The notes under the pieces were generated by a model that saw nothing but the letters and a program-made list of their open reading frames with translations, searched no databases and was not told where the DNA came from. Positions 53,616-61,803 of a stretch of DNA of 64,000 nt are shown here, in pieces. Each line of letters begins with the position of its first letter. Within the stretch, counting starts at the first letter, position 1. Origin of the DNA: an uncultured cyanobacterium (GTDB taxonomy: Bacteria; Cyanobacteriota; Cyanobacteriia; Cyanobacteriales; CAWUOF01); contig CAVUSO010000001.1 in assembly GCA_963744145.1 (NCBI GenBank), forward strand, positions 5,376,001 through 5,440,000. The letters are read 5' to 3'. Position numbers and translations under genes: made by a program.

Positions 53616-54938
53616 TCACTGATTCATCTGGGATGATTGGGTTGGTAAACATAAGGTAAAAGTAGATCCTTGACCTAATACACTCTCTAGTGTTACATAT
53701 CCTCCCATAATTTGACATAACTTTTGCGTCAGAGCTAAACCCAATCCTGTACCACCATATTTCCGGGTACTTGACTCATCTACCTGGGTAAAGGGGTGAA
53801 AAATTCTTGACTTTTGTTCCTCACTAATTCCAATTCCCGTATCCCTGACCTGAAAATATATAAATTCTTTAACCAAAAAATTATCTGTGTTTTTATCTGC
53901 TCCTAAAACTAAGGGAAAGGTCTTTTTGAAGATTTGACTATTAACTCCTACTGGACAACGCTCAATGGTAAGGGAAATCTTACCTTTTTCTGTAAACTTA
54001 CAAGCGTTGCTAAGTAAATTTAGTAAACTCTGATGGACTTTATTGACATCATTATAGATAATACCCGGATCATTAAGATAAGTTACTTGTAAACTATTAT
54101 CTTTTTCTTCTACTAAAGGTTGAATTTTAGTAACTAAGGATTCCACTAATTTCATAACGTGAATTTTTTCGATTAAAAGACTCTCATTTCCGACTTCAAT
54201 ATTAGACAAATCAAGGATATCATTCACCAAAGTTAATAGATGATGACCAGCTTGAGAAATTTTCTCTAAATCTGGGATAAAATTTGGTTGTCCTAATTCT
54301 TCAGATTCTTCTTTAAGAATTTGACTATAGCCAATAATAGCATTGAGAGGAGTCCGGAGTTCATGACTCATATTTGCTAGAAATCTACTTTTAGCATAGT
54401 TAGCACTTTCGGCAACTTCTTTAGCTTTTATTAATTCTTGTAAAGACAATTCTAGCTGAATTTGAGTTTGTTGTAAATCTGATAGTGTTTTAGTTAACTC
54501 AGCGGTGCGCTCCTCCACGCGTTTTTCTAATTCTTTAGTCAATTGACGTAAATGAAGATGAGTTTTCACCCGGGCTAAAACTTCTTCATATTCAAAGGGT
54601 TTGGTAATATAGTCTACTCCACCAATTGCAAAACATTTAACTTTATCTAAAATATTATCTAAAGCACTAATAAAAATTATCGGTATATCCCGGAATTTTT
54701 CGTTAGCTTTGAGATGTTCACATAACTCATAACCATTCATTTCGGGCATATTAATATCCAGTAAGATCAAATCGGGAAGAACCGATTGGACTGATTTCAG
54801 AGCCATAGGTCCATTCAACGCTTTGCGAACTAAATAACCTGCTTCAGTCAGGATTGTAGATAAAATGCGGAGGTTCTGGGGCAGATCATCAACAATCAAA
54901 ATATATCGATTATCTTTACTGTTGTTATCATTAATCAT
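53616..54938 (-). CDS. Hybrid receiver-histidine kinase
   Basis: N-terminal REC domain; [16 protein letters not shown]. Confidence 0.92.
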
Positions 54939-57900
54939 TGGCGATAATTTTGAATTAAGTTTATGATTTTGTCAAATCGAAAATTATTAGACCAATCAGC
55001 TAATGTATCAGCTAATAGAGTATATTCAGGCGGGATTTCCGTCCCTAGTTGTAAAATTAATTCATCATAGCCTTTGATGGCTGCTGTATGCAAACGTTCT
55101 AACCATTCATCGGGCATTTTAGATAACTGGAAATTTAGGTCTATCTTGCCATTATTTTCCTCATTTTTGACTTTGCTGACATGATTTTTAACGGTTGAAT
55201 CTTCATAGATATAAACTACTCCTAAATATTCAGCCATTTTCGCTAACAACACTTCCTCACGGAATGGTTTGCGGACAAAATCGTCACAACCTGCGGACAT
55301 CACAATGCTACGATCTTCATCTAAAGCACTAGCTGTCAGCGCAATAATCACTGTCGCTTGACCTTTTAAATGTGCTTTAATCTGTTTAGTAGCTTCATAA
55401 CCATCCATCACGGACATTCGCATATCCATCCAAATTAGATGTGGTTCCCACTCTGACCAAATTTCTACTGCAACTGCACCATTTTCAGCTTCTTTGACCT
55501 CAAACCCAATCGTTGACAGTAGTCTAACTAATAACAAGCGACTTTCAAAGCGATCTTCAACTACTAAAATCCGATAGGAAGGTTGATCAGGAGCTAGTTT
55601 CAAAACTTTTCCTGTCGATTGTCCATAATGAATCTCCTGGGGGTCTGCTAAACTAACTTGTACGTTAAATTTAAAAATAGTTCCTCGATCTAATGTACTA
55701 CTAACGCTAATTTCTCCACCCATCATTTCCACAAATTTACGACTAATGGGTAAACCCAGTCCAGTCCCAGTTTGGGATTTTCGTCCGGTTTCAGTTTGGA
55801 CAAAAGGTTCAAATAACAGATTAAGTTCGGAAGGGGCAATTCCTGGACCGGTGTCTTCGATTTCAAAGAACAAGTTTACTGGTTGTCTATAAGGAGAATT
55901 TTTTGGCTGATTAATTGTGTCTAATAATGGTTGTTTAAAGATCCGCAGCACCACACCTCCTGTTTCCGTAAATTTAATTGCATTACCGAGTAAGTTAATT
56001 AATACTTGGCGAACTTTACTTTCATCAGCATATATATAATGGGGAACGTTGCTCGCAATTTCAAAAATTAATTCTAAGTCTTTCGATTTAGCTTTTAGTT
56101 GTAACATATCTTCCAGAATATCTAGCAGTCGATATAAATCAAAACCATTTTCATTGAGAGTTAGTCTTCCTGCTTCAATTTTTGACATATCCAAAATATC
56201 ATTAATTAGTTCCAGTAAATGTTCCCCACTACCACTAATAATTGCTAAGGTTTTTTTCTGCTCCTCTGACAGTGCAGGATCTCGGTTCATAAGTTGAGCA
56301 AAACCTAGAATCGCATTCAGAGGAGTTCGCAATTCATGGCTCATATTTGCCAAAAATTCACTTTTAGAACGATTCGCGGTATTAGCAGCGATCGCGACTT
56401 GTTTAAGAGCTGCTTCTGCACGTTTGCGATCGCTAATATCATTTGATAGAGACAGCAAACATTTTTGTCCATTTAAGTAAATAATTTCCGTAGATAATAG
56501 CCCAGTTTTTATTTCTCCTGATTTGGTCTGAAATTCAAATTCATAATTACGAATTGCGGTATTACCTGTCATCATATCAAACATTTGTGCCCGCGCTTCA
56601 GGATTGACCCACAGATTTAATTCGGATGAAGTATGACCGATTACTTCTTCTCTGGTATAACCAATCATCCGACAAAAAGCATCATTTACCTCTAGATGAG
56701 AGCCATCATTCAAACTGGTAATGGTAATGGGATTAGGTGAGGAAACAAAAGCTCGAAAAAACTTTTCTTCTGAATGTAATAAAGCAGCTGTACGTTGTTC
56801 TATTTGGGTTTCTAAATCTTTATTTGTCTGTTCCCATGCACTAAAAGTAGTACCTAATTGCTGTGACATTAAATTAAAAGAGGTAGCTAAAATTTCTAAT
56901 TCTTTAATCCCATGTCCTTGAATATTTTGGTTTAATTCACCACGACTAATTGCTTGAGTTGCTTGGCTTAATTGTAAAATGGGTTTGATAATCAAACGGG
57001 ATGTAAAAATTCCGCTAATTATGCTTAATCCTAATACTCCTAAACAAATAAATATCGTATTATATATATGGGAATTAATTTGTCCCATCAAATCTTCAGT
57101 GGGAATTACTACCACCATCAACCAATCTAAACCAAATTGATCTTGGATGGGGGATACTTGGACAATTTGGGTTTTACCAGCTAGTTCAAAGCTAAGTGTT
57201 TCACGATTTTTAATTTGACTAAACTTGCCAAATTGATTTAATAAAAATTTTCCAGTTGCTTGCATAACTGGAATACTACTCTCCATCACAGATAACCGTT
57301 TTTGTTGACCATTGCTAGTAATAAAAGGTGACTCATTACTAGAATTAGCAATCAGTTTGCCGGTGCGATCGATAATGAAAGCTTTACCTGATTCACTAAT
57401 TTTTTCTTGGCGCAATAAGTCACTAATTTGGTCTAAACTAATATCATTACCTAATCCTCCTAAAAATTCTCCAGTCCGAGTATAAATTGGGGTAGCATGG
57501 GTAAGGGTAAACAGTGAATGTTCATTTACTTGATAGATCAGACTCCAGATCGGTTTTTTTGCTTTTGCAACTGCTTGATACCAGGGGGGAAGTCCAGCAG
57601 CATCATTAATACTACTAATTAAGGTATTTCGATTACCAAAGTTATCCAGCGTATAGGTATTAACTTTTCCCAGGGTAGATTGATCTTTAATCTCTACAAC
57701 TGGTAGATTATTGTCACGCTTTCTGATCGTAATAAATTGTCTATTTTTATTAATAAACCGGATTAAAGATACTGAATTTGAGCTTCTAATTTGAACCCAG
57801 AAATACTGTTGCAAAACCTGGAAATTACTAAAATTGATAATTTGAGTACGTTGGGCATCTAAGCTAACTTGATTAAGCCCAGGAGCTGACTTTAAATATG

Positions 57901-58141
57901 TTTGTACTTCTTGCTCAAGATTGACAGCTATCTTCCCGCTCAACTGACTAGCTAAATCAGTCATAACTCTACGTCCGTTTCGCAAGGATAGATATCCCGT
58001 AATGCCCACTATTCCTAAAGTTTGGAGGACAAACGGAATACTTAAAACTAGACGTAGCGGGACTTGAAAATAATGTTGCTTCAACCTACTGGTAAGAGTT
58101 TTAAATAACATTGATAGTACCTGACCATTTGCACTGTACAA
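54935..58141 (-). CDS. Cache-HAMP-PAS hybrid histidine kinase with C-terminal receiver
   Basis: Two TMs flanking a Cache-like region, HAMP, PAS ([12 protein letters not shown]), [12 protein letters not shown] (WMDMRM, VRKP); start uncertain. Confidence 0.92.
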
Positions 58142-58735
58142 GATTTTCGGGAGTTAGCTGCTGTTACTAAGATTTATCCATCAATTTTGAATGTAAAAAT
58201 ATAAGCTAGTTAATGATTTTTGCCAAAAGAATACTTCCTAATTAAAAATTTTGCTTGCCCATAATTACCAATATTTGAACCCTCAAAGTTAGAATTGTAG
58301 CTGACTCAAGCATTAACTCGGTTCCCCATTGAGCAATCGCTTTGATTGCTTAAATTAACTACTTGGTCTCAATTAACCTTTTATATGATCTGGACCAAAA
58401 ACTTACAGAACGTCAGCTCGGCCCTAATTCATATATTATAAGGAGTGAAGATGAAAACCCCCAAAAATGCTTTTAGTGTTCTATGTCAAGCTCGGGGATG
58501 TTTCAACTATGCCCCCTCGCTATACCAGACTGAGGAACGTTAATCTCATCCAGGTTGAAATTTCTTCTGATCTAGGATTGAGTCGGTCTTTTGCCATTTT
58601 ACCTGGTCTTCCATATCATAAAATTGCACCAATATTCTGTCTTCCTTAAGGAAATTTTCTGTTAAAAAATATAAAATTTTTGTAAAATTACTAATTTTTC
58701 CACCACTATTCAGCAAAAGGTGTTATATTGAATAG

Positions 58736-59310
58736 TGAAAGTTGTTCATCTAGTTGGGTTGCACAGATAAATTGAAACTCCATGCAATAGCTGACTATAA
58801 CTGGCGAATCCTCTGGTCCCTAGACCTGAAATTAAAGCGGAAACGTCATTGCGATCCCACCTTATCGTGGACTGATAGTTGTGAAGTGCCCAGTATGTGC
58901 TGATCGACCTGTAAGTTCAGGTTTGCAACTGCCAAGTTAAATCAAGGCACCGTAGAGACGCGATCGGTGTAAAAATGGCAAGCAAACTGGGTCGATCAAG
59001 CTCATGCAAATGAGATTTTTTTAATAATCTAATGGTAGATGCGGCAAAACGCGCTGCTGAAATAGCTGGATTTGTTTTAAATTAGGCTGGGATCGCTCCT
59101 TGGGAAATGGTCATTTACCCATGGGAAGAATCAAAAAGCTTGGTTTAGGAACAATAATGTACGTGCTATTAGCTGAAGTAAGCCCAAACTGTTTGGAACT
59201 GTTTAGATCAGATCCGGACTGTGATCACTTGGAAGTGATTTTTAGCTACTGATAGTCTCAGCTAATCGGACAACACCTAATCTGCGTCAGTTAACCTGTT
59301 AATCCTACTT
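58736..59310 (+). ncRNA. Candidate large structured RNA or long 5' leader (ends approximate)
   Basis: No ORF of 60 aa or more; extended -10 TGnTATATT at 58721-58729; many nested stems, including GNRA-capped hairpins. Confidence 0.45.
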
Positions 59311-59326
59311 TTGGAGATGAAAAAAA

Positions 59327-60532
59327 ATGTCTAAAATCCTTAATCACAAAATTGCTCCTGCACCAATTCCCTCCACCATTAATGTGGTTGATTTAATTGA
59401 TGGTTACTTCACCGCTTATAATTCAGCGCGTTTGCGGGAAATCTGTCATCTGCTCAGTCAGAAAGTAATGTGTCAAGGAGTGACGGTAGGACTCAGTTTA
59501 TCAGGTGCAATGACACCTGCTGGTTTTGGAGTTTCGGCTTTATCACCTTTGATCCGCAATGGTTTTATTGACTATATCATCAGCACTGGAGCCAATTTAT
59601 ACCACGACATCCATTATGGATTGGCTTTAGATCTATATGCCGGTAATCCATTTGTTGATGATGTGCAACTACGTGAAGAAGGTCATATTCGGATCTATGA
59701 CATTGTCTTTGACTACGATGTCTTATTACAAACAGACGCATTTATTCGGAAAATTCTCCGCGCACCAGCTTTTCAAAAACGGATGGGCACAGCTGAGTTT
59801 CACTATTTACTAGGCTACTATGTCCGGGAAGTGGAAAAACAATTAGGTGTCAAACATTCTTGTTTACTAGCTACAGCATACGAATGTGGTGTACCCATTT
59901 ATACTTCTTCTCCAGGAGATAGCTCAATTGGGATGAATGTTGCAGCTTTAGCTTTAGAAGGTTCGCAGTTAATCATTGACCCAGCAATTGATGTGAATGA
60001 AACCGCAGCGATCGCTTACTGTGCTCGGGAAAGCGATCTACCTGGGGTAGAAGGTAAAAGTGCCGCAGTGATTATCGGTGGTGGTAGTCCGAAAAACTTT
60101 CTTCTCCAAACTCAACCTCAAATCCACGAAGTTTTGGGTTTACCAGAACGTGGTCACGATTTCTTTGTGCAAGTAACTGATGCTCGTCCAGATACTGGTG
60201 GACTTTCCGGTGCTACTCCTAGTGAAGCAGTGAGTTGGGGAAAAGTTGACCCCCATGAATTACCTAACACCGTTGTTTGTTACACCGATAGCACGATCGC
60301 TTTACCGCTCATTGCTGCTTACATTATGAATCAAAACCCCTCCCGTCCTTTAAAACGGCTGTATGACCGGAGATCGCAGTTGTTGACCAAACTCCAATTA
60401 GATTATCAATTAGCCCAAGCTAATGCGGCTCAATCCGTACCAGTCATGGTAGCTCCCAACCCAACCGGGCGATCCGTCGCTACTTATCCTTGTGGTACAC
60501 CAATTCGCAATGGTCATTCTGGTCATGGTTAG
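59327..60532 (+). CDS. speY: Deoxyhypusine synthase-like homospermidine biosynthesis protein
   Basis: [40 protein letters not shown]. Confidence 0.85.
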
Positions 60533-60675: not shown

Positions 60676-61803
60676 TTACATAATTGCTAGAACGAATTCA
60701 CCCTCATTAACAGACTGGTTAATCGCAACATGAAAAACTAATCCACATCGGTCTGAATGAACATTTTTAACACTAGGGAACTGCTGTGACTTATCAAAAT
60801 TCAAAACCTGGTACAGCAGATCCCCTGGCTCAACTGAAGTACCAAGTGCTACCCTGGATTGAACCATACCACCTACCGGTGACCAGTATTTTTTTACCTG
60901 GCTTACGGGTCTGAAACTCATGTTGAGTTGGATTAATTGTTCTGGGAACAAGTTTTCTAGATTGAGAATATGTTTTTGAACTAGGTAGTTCTTTACTCCC
61001 AAAACTCCATGGGAAACTGAATTTGGATTCATTTCCATTCCCGGACCTAGTTCTAGGGTGTATGCTTCTACATCGAATTTGATTTGTTTCCCTAATTTAG
61101 ATAGGATATTCTCTAAAGCCAACCAAGGCTTTATAAACGCTTCATCAAAAGCATCCCCATCATAATCATCCAACATAATCCCATGCTCAAACAAGAATAA
61201 CTTGGCACTTTCTTCGCGATCGCGGAAGTAATACAAATATTCCAACCCATAATTAGTATTACTGTGCAAATCGATCAAATAGTCAGCGTCTAAACAGAGA
61301 GATTGCATCTTATACCGATATTTATCAGTTAATTGAACACTACTAGGGGCATCAATTTTAGTTTTAATCTCTGCAAAGCTAGTTTTAATTTTCTGTTTAT
61401 AGTTCTGCTTAATGAGTTCTGGAGCAAAATCAATTTGAGACTGGGCAAACTCTTCTAAATCTTGACAAACTTTTTCATAGTCCCAGTAGATGCGATTCCA
61501 ATCCTTACCATCATAGGTATTGAATCGTCCGGTAGCAAACTGATGGGAACGCTGGTTTGTTGCTAAGGGATTACAGACCGGAACCAGCCAAATTTCTCCA
61601 GTTAAGACTTCTGATTCAAGAGTCATCAAAAACTCAATTAATTGATAAATGACAGCATTACCGACAATTTCACTACCATGTAAGTTAGCTTGGAGGTAAA
61701 CTTTCTTACCCGGTCTAGCACCAGAGAACCTATAGACTTTGATCGATAGGTGATCACCAGAAGCAAGTTGTAGGAGGGGAATAGTTTCAATGGTTGGAAT
61801 CAT
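60676..61803 (-). CDS. Succinylglutamate desuccinylase/aspartoacylase-family (M14) protein
   Basis: HGSE, DWNR, IDLH, TLELG. Confidence 0.85.
   Translation of the reverse strand: MIPTIETIPLLQLASGDHLSIKVYRFSGARPGKKVYLQANLHGSEIVGNAVIYQLIEFLMTLESEVLTGEIWLVPVCNPLATNQRSHQFATGRFNTYDGKDWNRIYWDYEKVCQDLEEFAQSQIDFAPELIKQNYKQKIKTSFAEIKTKIDAPSSVQLTDKYRYKMQSLCLDADYLIDLHSNTNYGLEYLYYFRDREESAKLFLFEHGIMLDDYDGDAFDEAFIKPWLALENILSKLGKQIKFDVEAYTLELGPGMEMNPNSVSHGVLGVKNYLVQKHILNLENLFPEQLIQLNMSFRPVSQVKKYWSPVGGMVQSRVALGTSVEPGDLLYQVLNFDKSQQFPSVKNVHSDRCGLVFHVAINQSVNEGEFVLAIM

Follow-up and report, generated by a model that had tools for sequence, protein, structure and literature searches.

The stretch of DNA analysed here (the window, 64,000 nucleotides (nt) from an uncultured cyanobacterium) contains a gene for SpeY, a homospermidine biosynthesis protein, and a divergently oriented gene for a hybrid histidine kinase. 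A 1185-nt intergenic gap separates these two genes, and the proposed leader element described in this work sits inside the gap. The conserved core of the element is located at 58721-59025 and comprises an extended -10 promoter element, an open reading frame (ORF) of 43 codons started by TTG, a two-part stem (P1/P2), and a weak hairpin followed by seven T. We consider this core to be probably a cis-acting translated leader that controls speY, of the arrest-peptide or attenuator type and with either regulatory sign. Little has been described of how polyamine synthesis is regulated in cyanobacteria. The features of the locus are as follows, where A1 is the alignment of the element.

54935-58141, - strand: hybrid histidine kinase gene, left flank of the gap
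58721-58729, + strand: extended -10 promoter element TG-T-TATATT (TG-n-TAnAnT type), conserved in alignment A1
58757-58759, + strand: GGT, within the conserved GGTTGC of the ~35-nt 5' untranslated region; nearly invariant A1 columns G42 G43 T44
58772-58903, + strand: small ORF of 43 codons plus TGA stop, with TTG start; supported by the intact frame and codon statistics
58889-58897, + strand: Pro-Ser-Met codons CCC AGT ATG, the putative stall site; AGT invariant
58893-58900 with 59000-59007, + strand: candidate antiterminator formed by the last ORF codons, 7 of 8 positions paired; from the minimum-energy fold of the window
58901-58910, + strand: P1 5' arm, 10 pairs with 58989-58998; from covariation and RNAalifold
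58911-58920, + strand: conserved asymmetric internal loop of the TGTAAC type, between the P1 and P2 5' arms
58921-58926, + strand: P2 5' arm GTTTGC, 6 pairs with 58982-58987
58927-58981, + strand: variable apical part of the stem; window helices 58930-34/58976-80 and 58947-52/58965-70 in the minimum-energy fold
58982-58998, + strand: 3' arms of P2 (58982-58987) and P1 (58989-58998); from covariation and RNAalifold
59001-59022, + strand: weak terminator-like hairpin CTCAT-GCAA-ATGAG (59001-59014), A, and seven T (59016-59022); from the family pattern search
59026-59326, + strand: spacer from the element to speY, not detectably conserved; blastn and nhmmer matches reach no further than ~59022
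59327-60532, + strand: speY, a deoxyhypusine-synthase-like homospermidine biosynthesis protein of 401 amino acids (aa), the presumed regulated gene; NCBIfam NF001980, Pfam PF01916

Over its whole length, the window SpeY scored 563.4 bits against NCBIfam NF001980, which has a cut-off of 450, and is thus a member of this family; its match to Pfam PF01916 has an E-value of 3.4e-68. SpeY enzymes are reported to join two agmatine molecules en route to homospermidine (PMC13625781). Both the NF001980-type and the NF002699-type enzymes belong to the SpeY group.

Two observations of the original prediction, made by eye for 58721-59326, concern the start of the element, and both were borne out. An extended -10 does precede the region, and the region is less AT-rich than the spacer before it, as the G+C content rises from 0.28 at 58550-58774 to 0.43-0.48 at 58775-59074. 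A consensus promoter scan passed over this extended -10 because a -35 match is lacking. Transcription would start ~6-9 nt 3' of the -10, around 58735-58738. The GGT at 58757-58759 is located 13-15 nt 5' of the TTG start and may represent a distant, weak Shine-Dalgarno sequence.

The leader ORF and its coding evidence

The original prediction described the region as free of ORFs. On the contrary, a frame is open at 58754-58903 in the ORF listing, and its conserved form is the 43-codon gene beginning at TTG 58772. In all 38 aligned loci the frame stays open for 42-47 codons from an invariant TTG and gives closely related peptides; among the main-type elements, the start codon is TTG in 64 of 64. 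Variation in A1 is concentrated at every third base of the ORF. For the 36 distinct sequences, summed column entropies at codon positions 1, 2 and 3 equal 25.1, 17.7 and 46.9, respectively, and the synonymous share of differing codons is 49% in the ORF frame as compared to 12.8% and 9.7% in the shifted frames. The same sequences have no stop codons in the ORF frame, versus 143 and 92 in the shifted ones. Judged by these codon statistics, the leader ORF is under protein-level selection. One of the hairpins originally listed, GCG-GAAA-CGT, proved to be simply a set of Lys-Arg-Lys-Arg codons.

In the peptide alignment (A2), 11 of the 43 columns are invariant and five more are nearly so. The most conserved part is a C-terminal core with the motifs KLKRKR and DP-LSW-D-CE-PS, and the acidic residues D28, D35 and E38 are among the invariant or nearly invariant positions. 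At the end of the ORF, all 78 of 78 elements use AGT for Ser, although the wobble base of the preceding Pro codon varies (CCC in 41, CCT in 35, CCA and CCG in one each), which points to a constraint at the nucleotide level. A2 has no run of codons for one sensed amino acid; its conserved positions mix W, L, R, D, P, S, C and E. With moderate confidence (mean predicted local distance difference test score, pLDDT, 67.9), AlphaFold2 predicted a helix that spans residues 3-27, and the most conserved C-terminal part received the lowest confidence (block means 58 and 51); this model does not discriminate between the readings considered below.

The leader peptide had no Pfam match at E <= 1, and its sole NCBIfam match was at the chance level (E 0.08-0.14), with no described arrest-peptide family found. 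A protein search with the window peptide alone returned no candidate, and the A2 profile was needed to detect relatives. With this profile we found 13 relatives, all without a name or labelled "hypothetical", in a set of 5.8 billion clustered proteins. There were 23 leader-peptide matches among 1.84 billion representative proteins. The leader ORF is thus almost never reported by gene callers. A full-text literature search, covering main texts, found no description of the element, nor did passages of the 2026 SpeY paper. Likewise, we found no description of a speY regulator in this search or in those passages.

The P1/P2 stem and the terminator-like hairpin

The P1 5' arm begins with the TGA stop of the leader ORF (58901-58903) as its first three bases. 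In the alignment of 59 elements (A3), the ten P1 pairs are paired in 97.6% of cells and the six P2 pairs in 94.6%, and each of the two helices has five pairs with changes on both sides, which amounts to 10 of 16 pairs. For instance, one P1 pair is C-G in 31 sequences, U-A in 24 and U-G in four. The entire structure is 90.3% paired, and this value drops to 24-47% when the partner is slid by 1-3 columns; none of 500 shuffles reached the observed P1 and P2 values. Given the full alignment of 460 columns, RNAalifold predicted the P1/P2 stem only (16 pairs, eight with compensatory changes) and no pairs within the leader ORF part. The apical part of the stem is conserved neither in length nor in sequence (A1, A3).

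The location of the stop in the stem varies among lineages. In Laspinema-type loci (including L013) and in L118, L119 and L132, the TGA of P1 is replaced by CGA or TGG, and the ORF is 4-5 codons longer and ends at a TAG or TAA in the internal-loop motif, so that the stem is retained while the stop moves. Another helix that we considered would join CCnAGT (58889-94) to ACTnGG (58986-91). Its pairing reaches 87.6%, but nearly all of this comes from invariant columns, and its one variable pair is unpaired in 13 of the 59 sequences; it was not adopted.

The original prediction proposed an extensively base-paired fold of ~550 nt. For 58721-59326, the folding z-score was -2.77 on the + strand and -2.43 on the - strand, with none of 20 shuffles as stable on either strand. 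Analysed by parts, only 58886-59025 was significant (z -3.53, 0 of 200 shuffles), as compared to z +0.69 for 58735-58885, where 154 of 200 shuffles fold as well, and z -1.52 for 59026-59326 (7 of 100 shuffles). The structure beyond chance is limited to the stem at ~58893-59007, and the larger fold was not upheld.

The individual pairings named in the original prediction all exist at their stated positions. These include TGATCGACC (58901) with GGTCGATCA (58990), the enclosed pairs GTTTGC/GCAAAC (58921/58982), TGCCA/TGGCA (58930/58976) and GCACCG/CGGTGT (58947/58965), and the hairpins CTCAT-GCAA-ATGAG (59001), ATCACT-TGGA-AGTGAT (59224) and TGGGAAATG/CATTTACCCA (59101-59121). The proposed outer closure, TAGCTGAC (58788) with GTCAGTTA (59286), is also present, with one G-T pair, but at the level expected by chance: the 606 nt contain 116 helices of 8 base pairs (bp) versus 90.6 +/- 11.8 in ten shuffles, and the 58788 half lies inside the coding sequence.

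Searched against Rfam 15 at gathering cut-offs, the whole window gave no match, in agreement with the earlier view that the region is not rnpB, tmRNA or a group II intron. A permissive search of 58100-59500 gave two matches at the chance level (E 3.1 and 6.3), at 16 bits versus cut-offs of 100 and 59.5.

The original prediction also saw no clear terminator ahead of speY. The hairpin at 59001 has a run of seven T behind it (59016-59022), and a terminator-like site, although a weak one, thus separates the region from speY. Within the family, we searched for a stem of at least 4 bp followed by at least four T in six positions, within 20 nt after P1. This pattern occurred in 39 of 59 members as compared to 17.4 +/- 3.2 in shuffles, with weak stems throughout (4-8 bp, 1-3 G-C pairs).

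The predicted pairing of the last ORF codons (58893-58900) with 59000-59007 lengthens P1 and thereby occupies the 5' arm of the terminator-like hairpin. When the 39 members with hairpin and T-run were folded as naked RNA, the extended P1 formed in 29, the hairpin in seven and neither in three. With the upstream segment shuffled, the extended P1 was chosen in 12.1 +/- 2.4 members (maximum 17 in 30 runs).

Distribution and linkage to speY genes

To assess conservation upstream of orthologues, we used one genome per species, which gave 80 cyanobacterial loci with proteins 75-82% identical to the window SpeY. A ~295-nt element corresponding to window positions 58728-59022 was found upstream in 37 of them, always on the strand of the gene (blastn, then nhmmer), and a protein-level search of the 80 loci recovered the identical 37. 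Across these 37 loci, the distance from the stop of the leader ORF to the start of speY ranges from 254 to 532 nt with a median of 378 nt, and equals 423 nt in the window. The conservation that a leader role implied for the original region therefore holds for this element, with its covarying P1/P2, but not for 59026-59326. Among the carriers are Laspinema, Phormidesmis, Roseofilum, Hormoscilla, Egbenema, Desertifilum, Crinalium and Kaiparowitsia, while the 43 loci that lack the element include those of Nostoc, Anabaena, Chlorogloeopsis, Fischerella, Microseira and Floridaenema. In some of these 43 loci, unlike the window, a long open frame on the same strand ends 40-160 nt upstream of speY.

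A wider survey was made by a six-frame search with the peptide profile in 401 genomes sampled across the cyanobacterial class. The leader peptide occurred in 172 of the 401 genomes and 77 of 170 genera, almost always as one copy per genome; the window SpeY was matched in 179 of the 401. Linkage was assessed on 150 listed peptide matches. Among the best 30 of these 150, speY is located downstream in 30 of 30 (tblastn). Of the next 120, for which coordinates were compared by eye, 91 share the strand of speY and are located 250-1100 nt upstream of it, five are undecided owing to contig ends or unlisted rows (G053, G143, G326 contig 47, G418 and G108), and the remaining 24 represent a shorter variant form in families without an NF001980-type gene. 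For example, in family f42 the leader ORF was found in 37 of 39 genomes and an NF001980-type speY in none of the 39.

The variant form is associated with another branch of the SpeY group. In each of the 14 variant loci examined (of 24), an ORF of 344-379 aa follows on the same strand 56-706 nt downstream. All 11 of the downstream proteins compared by blastp are 29-33% identical to the window SpeY, and all six of those scanned match NF002699 (1,9-bis(guanidino)-5-aza-nonane synthase) at 583-593 bits, above the cut-off of 500. On this genomic evidence, the leader ORF is linked to both SpeY paralogues, NF001980 and the ~30%-identical NF002699, upstream and on the same strand. Only a C-terminal core of ~28 residues (W-L, KL, R, DP-LSW-D-CE-PS) is common to the main and variant peptides, as would be expected for a peptide that is read inside the ribosome tunnel.

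The converse arrangement, speY without the leader ORF, was observed in family f7 (speY in 14 of 17, ORF in 0 of 17), family f41 (15 of 23 and 0 of 23) and family f53 (5 of 7 and 0 of 7), so the ORF is dispensable for the enzyme. Two genomes of genus g87 (G102 and G281, 2.5 Mb; loci L127 and L128) have two copies of the leader ORF, one before each SpeY paralogue, with the NCBIfam scan made on L127. In addition, a second main-type copy is located near the contig end in G326 contig 47 (L129).

The genome of the window has no second copy of 58600-59326. The family of this genome has one other genome, which leaves no close-kin nucleotide comparison, and a DNA search with 58142-59400 against 41 related genomes gave only matches of 30-57 nt (E 7e-5 to 7e-4), none within 58728-59022.

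The output side of the element differs between loci. The f42-type loci keep the layout with the stop in the stem. In four compact loci, with a gap of 58-75 nt, there is complementarity between the final codons of the ORF, CCTAGTCC, and GGACTAGG, a sequence that overlaps the downstream ribosome-binding site; these loci also have a competing hairpin that would sequester the Shine-Dalgarno sequence (CTTCCT/AGGAGG). The putative stall site is thus placed as in arrest peptides, where a ribosome would remodel a regulatory RNA structure downstream, with the stop in the covarying P1 or, in compact loci, with the last codons complementary to the ribosome-binding-site region. The use of the same peptide on different output platforms, the stem and the ribosome-binding-site pairing, is a pattern seen for regulatory sensors.

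Proposed mechanism, alternatives and related systems

The leader ORF appears to have the properties of those in attenuators, being short, conserved as coding sequence, and located upstream of the presumed regulated gene on the same strand. The earlier suggestion of a cis-regulatory leader for polyamine synthesis fits these data, while that of a large structured non-coding RNA does not, as only a stem of ~110 nt remains. We infer transcription, translation and stalling, as well as the ligand and the direction of the switch, from the sequence. Within the reading as a cis-acting translated leader, which we favour, a specific version is negative feedback by polyamines; we propose it tentatively and rate its chances as slightly below even.

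In this negative-feedback version, the extended -10 promoter would start a transcript whose first gene is the TTG-initiated ORF of 43 codons. The stop and the last codons of this ORF would form the base of P1/P2, with the weak hairpin and U-run directly after it. When the 3' end of the ORF is free of ribosomes, the P1 extension would take the 5' arm of the hairpin, no terminator would form, and transcription would read through ~300 nt into speY. A ribosome held at the ...CE-PS-M end would cover both the extension and the P1 5' arm, so that the hairpin would be free to form and transcription would stop. The signal would be the polyamine product of the pathway, acting by increased ribosome loading at an inefficient UUG start that has only a distant GG motif. 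Polyamines or a pathway intermediate may further prolong a pause at the ORF end that depends on the nascent peptide, favouring the terminator. In Escherichia coli, polyamines are described as stimulating UUG- and GUG-dependent initiation and the translation of mRNAs with a distant Shine-Dalgarno sequence (PMC4405209).

A number of observations weigh against the favoured reading or parts of it. The hairpin of the window has only 5 bp with two G-C pairs and falls below the terminator criteria of the scan, and 20 of the 59 members fail even the looser pattern of hairpin and T-run; several of these have a hairpin, then an A-rich spacer, and then the T's. The antiterminator extension is short, at 3-6 bp. 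When upstream segments were permuted among sequences, the extended P1 was still chosen in 24.7 +/- 2.1 members versus 29 observed, so there is no lineage-specific covariation, and the extended P1 is a property of the conserved consensus that covariation leaves unproven. In main-type loci, the ORF end has no excess complementarity to the ribosome-binding site of speY (-12.89 versus -12.32 +/- 0.41 kcal/mol when permuted, with 17 of 200 permutations as low). The unconserved spacer of 254-532 nt could hold a promoter of speY itself. For the compact variants, the competing hairpin makes the sign of the switch ambiguous. UUG sensing cannot be universal, as the f58-type copies begin with ATG. Finally, within the main family the peptide is conserved over its entire length, which would also suit a functional small protein.

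Such a protein is the basis of one alternative, in which the element is an independent gene with its own promoter and terminator, the 43-residue product acts in trans, e.g., as a partner or inhibitor of SpeY, and speY is transcribed from a promoter in the spacer. The full-length conservation, the predicted helix, the hairpin and T-run after the gene, the long unconserved spacer before speY, and the tight synteny, which is also typical of interacting partners, are all consistent with it. We nevertheless consider it unlikely, as the ORF was not found in many speY lineages (families f7, f41 and f53), the N-terminal half differs between the two peptide forms, model confidence is lowest in the most conserved C-terminal part, and the ORF end is constrained at the RNA level by the stop in a covarying stem, the invariant AGT and the pairing in compact loci. 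Moreover, the consensus scan listed no promoter-like site in 59026-59326. A transcript acting in trans by base-pairing, with the ORF in a secondary role, seems improbable. The promoter, the unit of ~290 nt and the terminator-like end are conserved together, and terminated attenuator RNAs are reported to act in trans in other bacteria (10.1101/606483); however, there is no known target, little sequence is conserved outside the ORF and P1/P2, and strict adjacency to speY-type genes would be unnecessary for such an RNA. A purely non-coding structured RNA with an incidental open frame is very hard to maintain. The z-score of the whole region and the conserved covarying stem agree with it, but the three-periodic substitutions, the synonymous share, the absence of stops in the frame and the frame intact in 38 of 38 loci contradict it. 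A riboswitch in particular was rejected, because the part upstream of the stem is coding and unstructured (z +0.69, no RNAalifold pairs, no Rfam match) and the apical part of the stem is variable.

The same cis-acting leader could also operate with the opposite logic, similar to SpeFL or TnaC, if a substrate or precursor, such as agmatine or arginine, were captured in the tunnel and the stalled ribosome turned speY on by opening the RNA downstream or the ribosome-binding site. As SpeY is reported to couple two agmatine molecules (PMC13625781), this would be induction by a substrate, for which SpeFL provides a precedent through a leader peptide (10.1101/604074). A ribosome on the last codons in the four compact loci would free the downstream ribosome-binding-site region, and the acidic D28, D35 and E38 could contact a cationic ligand. 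In main-type loci, on the other hand, a ribosome on the ORF end would remove the competitor of the terminator hairpin, and switching off is predicted; the hairpin is ~97 nt beyond the stop, so that a stalled ribosome cannot mask it directly, and the invariant TTG start is left unexplained. We regard induction as having a rather small chance of being correct.

The favoured translated leader resembles several known systems. Similar to the window element, SpeFL is a short conserved ORF in the leader of a polyamine gene, located upstream of speF (ornithine decarboxylase) in γ-proteobacteria. SpeFL acts through Rho, whereas the element described here has a stem and a weak hairpin of the intrinsic type, with putative stalling. 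In SpeFL, the ribosome together with its nascent chain is reported to capture a small metabolite and thus control the downstream gene (10.1101/604074). The window peptide differs from SpeFL in that it has no sequence relationship to it (Pfam, NCBIfam), occurs in another phylum, precedes a deoxyhypusine-synthase-like SpeY and starts with TTG. TnaC, the leader of the tryptophanase operon, is described as dependent on peptide sequence, with key residues near the C-terminus and the ribosome held at the ORF end (PMC8429421). There is no homology between the two, and in contrast to TnaC, which stalls at the stop codon, the stop position is not conserved here (4-5 codons later in some lineages), which suggests a pause at or before Pro-Ser-Met.

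In α-proteobacteria, the odc1 motif, found by comparative genomics, is a conserved upstream ORF (uORF) within a conserved RNA structure before ornithine decarboxylase (PMC8632094), and it shares with the window element this layout ahead of a polyamine-pathway gene. However, the odc1 uORF has 11 residues and a proposed choice between two start sites a few nt apart (PMC8632094), as compared to 43 codons here, a stop in a long stem and a regulated gene 254-532 nt away. The polyamine modulon of E. coli is similar with respect to the inefficient UUG start and the distant or obscure Shine-Dalgarno sequence (PMC4405209). The stimulated product there is a functional protein, whereas here it would be a regulatory leader, and the analogy is drawn from E. 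coli rather than from cyanobacteria. The trp, his and phe attenuators likewise have a leader ORF and a terminator ahead of the structural gene, together with alternative RNA pairings. In contrast to them, the window ORF has no regulatory codon runs and its amino acid sequence itself is conserved, which makes tRNA charging unlikely as the signal.

Among eukaryotes, AZIN1 provides a polyamine-responsive uORF. In AMD1, a conserved upstream or extension ORF that codes for a peptide is reported to stall ribosomes in control of the polyamine pathway (PMC13025110). These two systems are analogies only, without homology, and belong to eukaryotic scanning and termination. Altogether, the element would work like leader-peptide regulators, yet it belongs to no known one by sequence or model match.

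We thus describe a widespread and almost unannotated small ORF that is joined to an RNA stem ahead of genes of the homospermidine pathway. It is a candidate for a metabolite- or polyamine-sensing nascent peptide that is small and directly testable. Upon confirmation, it could find use as a compact regulatory part for cyanobacterial engineering. A bolder proposal, which we offer as speculative and judge doubtful, is that it represents the first prokaryotic leader peptide for polyamine feedback, a nascent chain conserved across cyanobacterial orders which would sense homospermidine or its guanidino or agmatine precursors in the tunnel, with an obligatory UUG adding polyamine-dependent initiation, at least two output platforms (an attenuation stem for transcription and the sequestration of the ribosome-binding site) and two SpeY paralogues of only ~30% identity. 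In that case it would be a bacterial counterpart of the AMD1 and AZIN1 uORF sensors. For genome scans, the case suggests caution, as long "structured" intergenic regions may conceal coding leaders started by TTG.

The spacer and the rest of the gap contain several minor features, of which those in the spacer are listed here.

59101-59121, + strand: local hairpin TGGGAAATG/CATTTACCCA, in the unconserved spacer
59224-59243, + strand: second terminator-like hairpin, ATCACT-TGGA-AGTGAT (59224-59239) plus TTTT, ~85 nt before speY
59313-59316, + strand: GGAG, in the spacer before speY

Upstream of the leader promoter, the same gap contains an ORF of 30 codons with an ATG at 58451 and a stop at 58541-58543. 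It has no Pfam match and begins 5 nt past a perfect AAGGAG (58440-58445). On the other side of speY, the neighbouring gene encodes a succinylglutamate desuccinylase/aspartoacylase-family (M14-like) protein (60676-61803, - strand). It is convergent with speY, and speY is therefore monocistronic in the window. Directly 3' of the GGAG at 59313-59316, an ORF of five codons (ATG 59317, stop 59332-59334) extends across the start codon of speY (59327) in a different frame; this may be due to chance or may be a coupling device.

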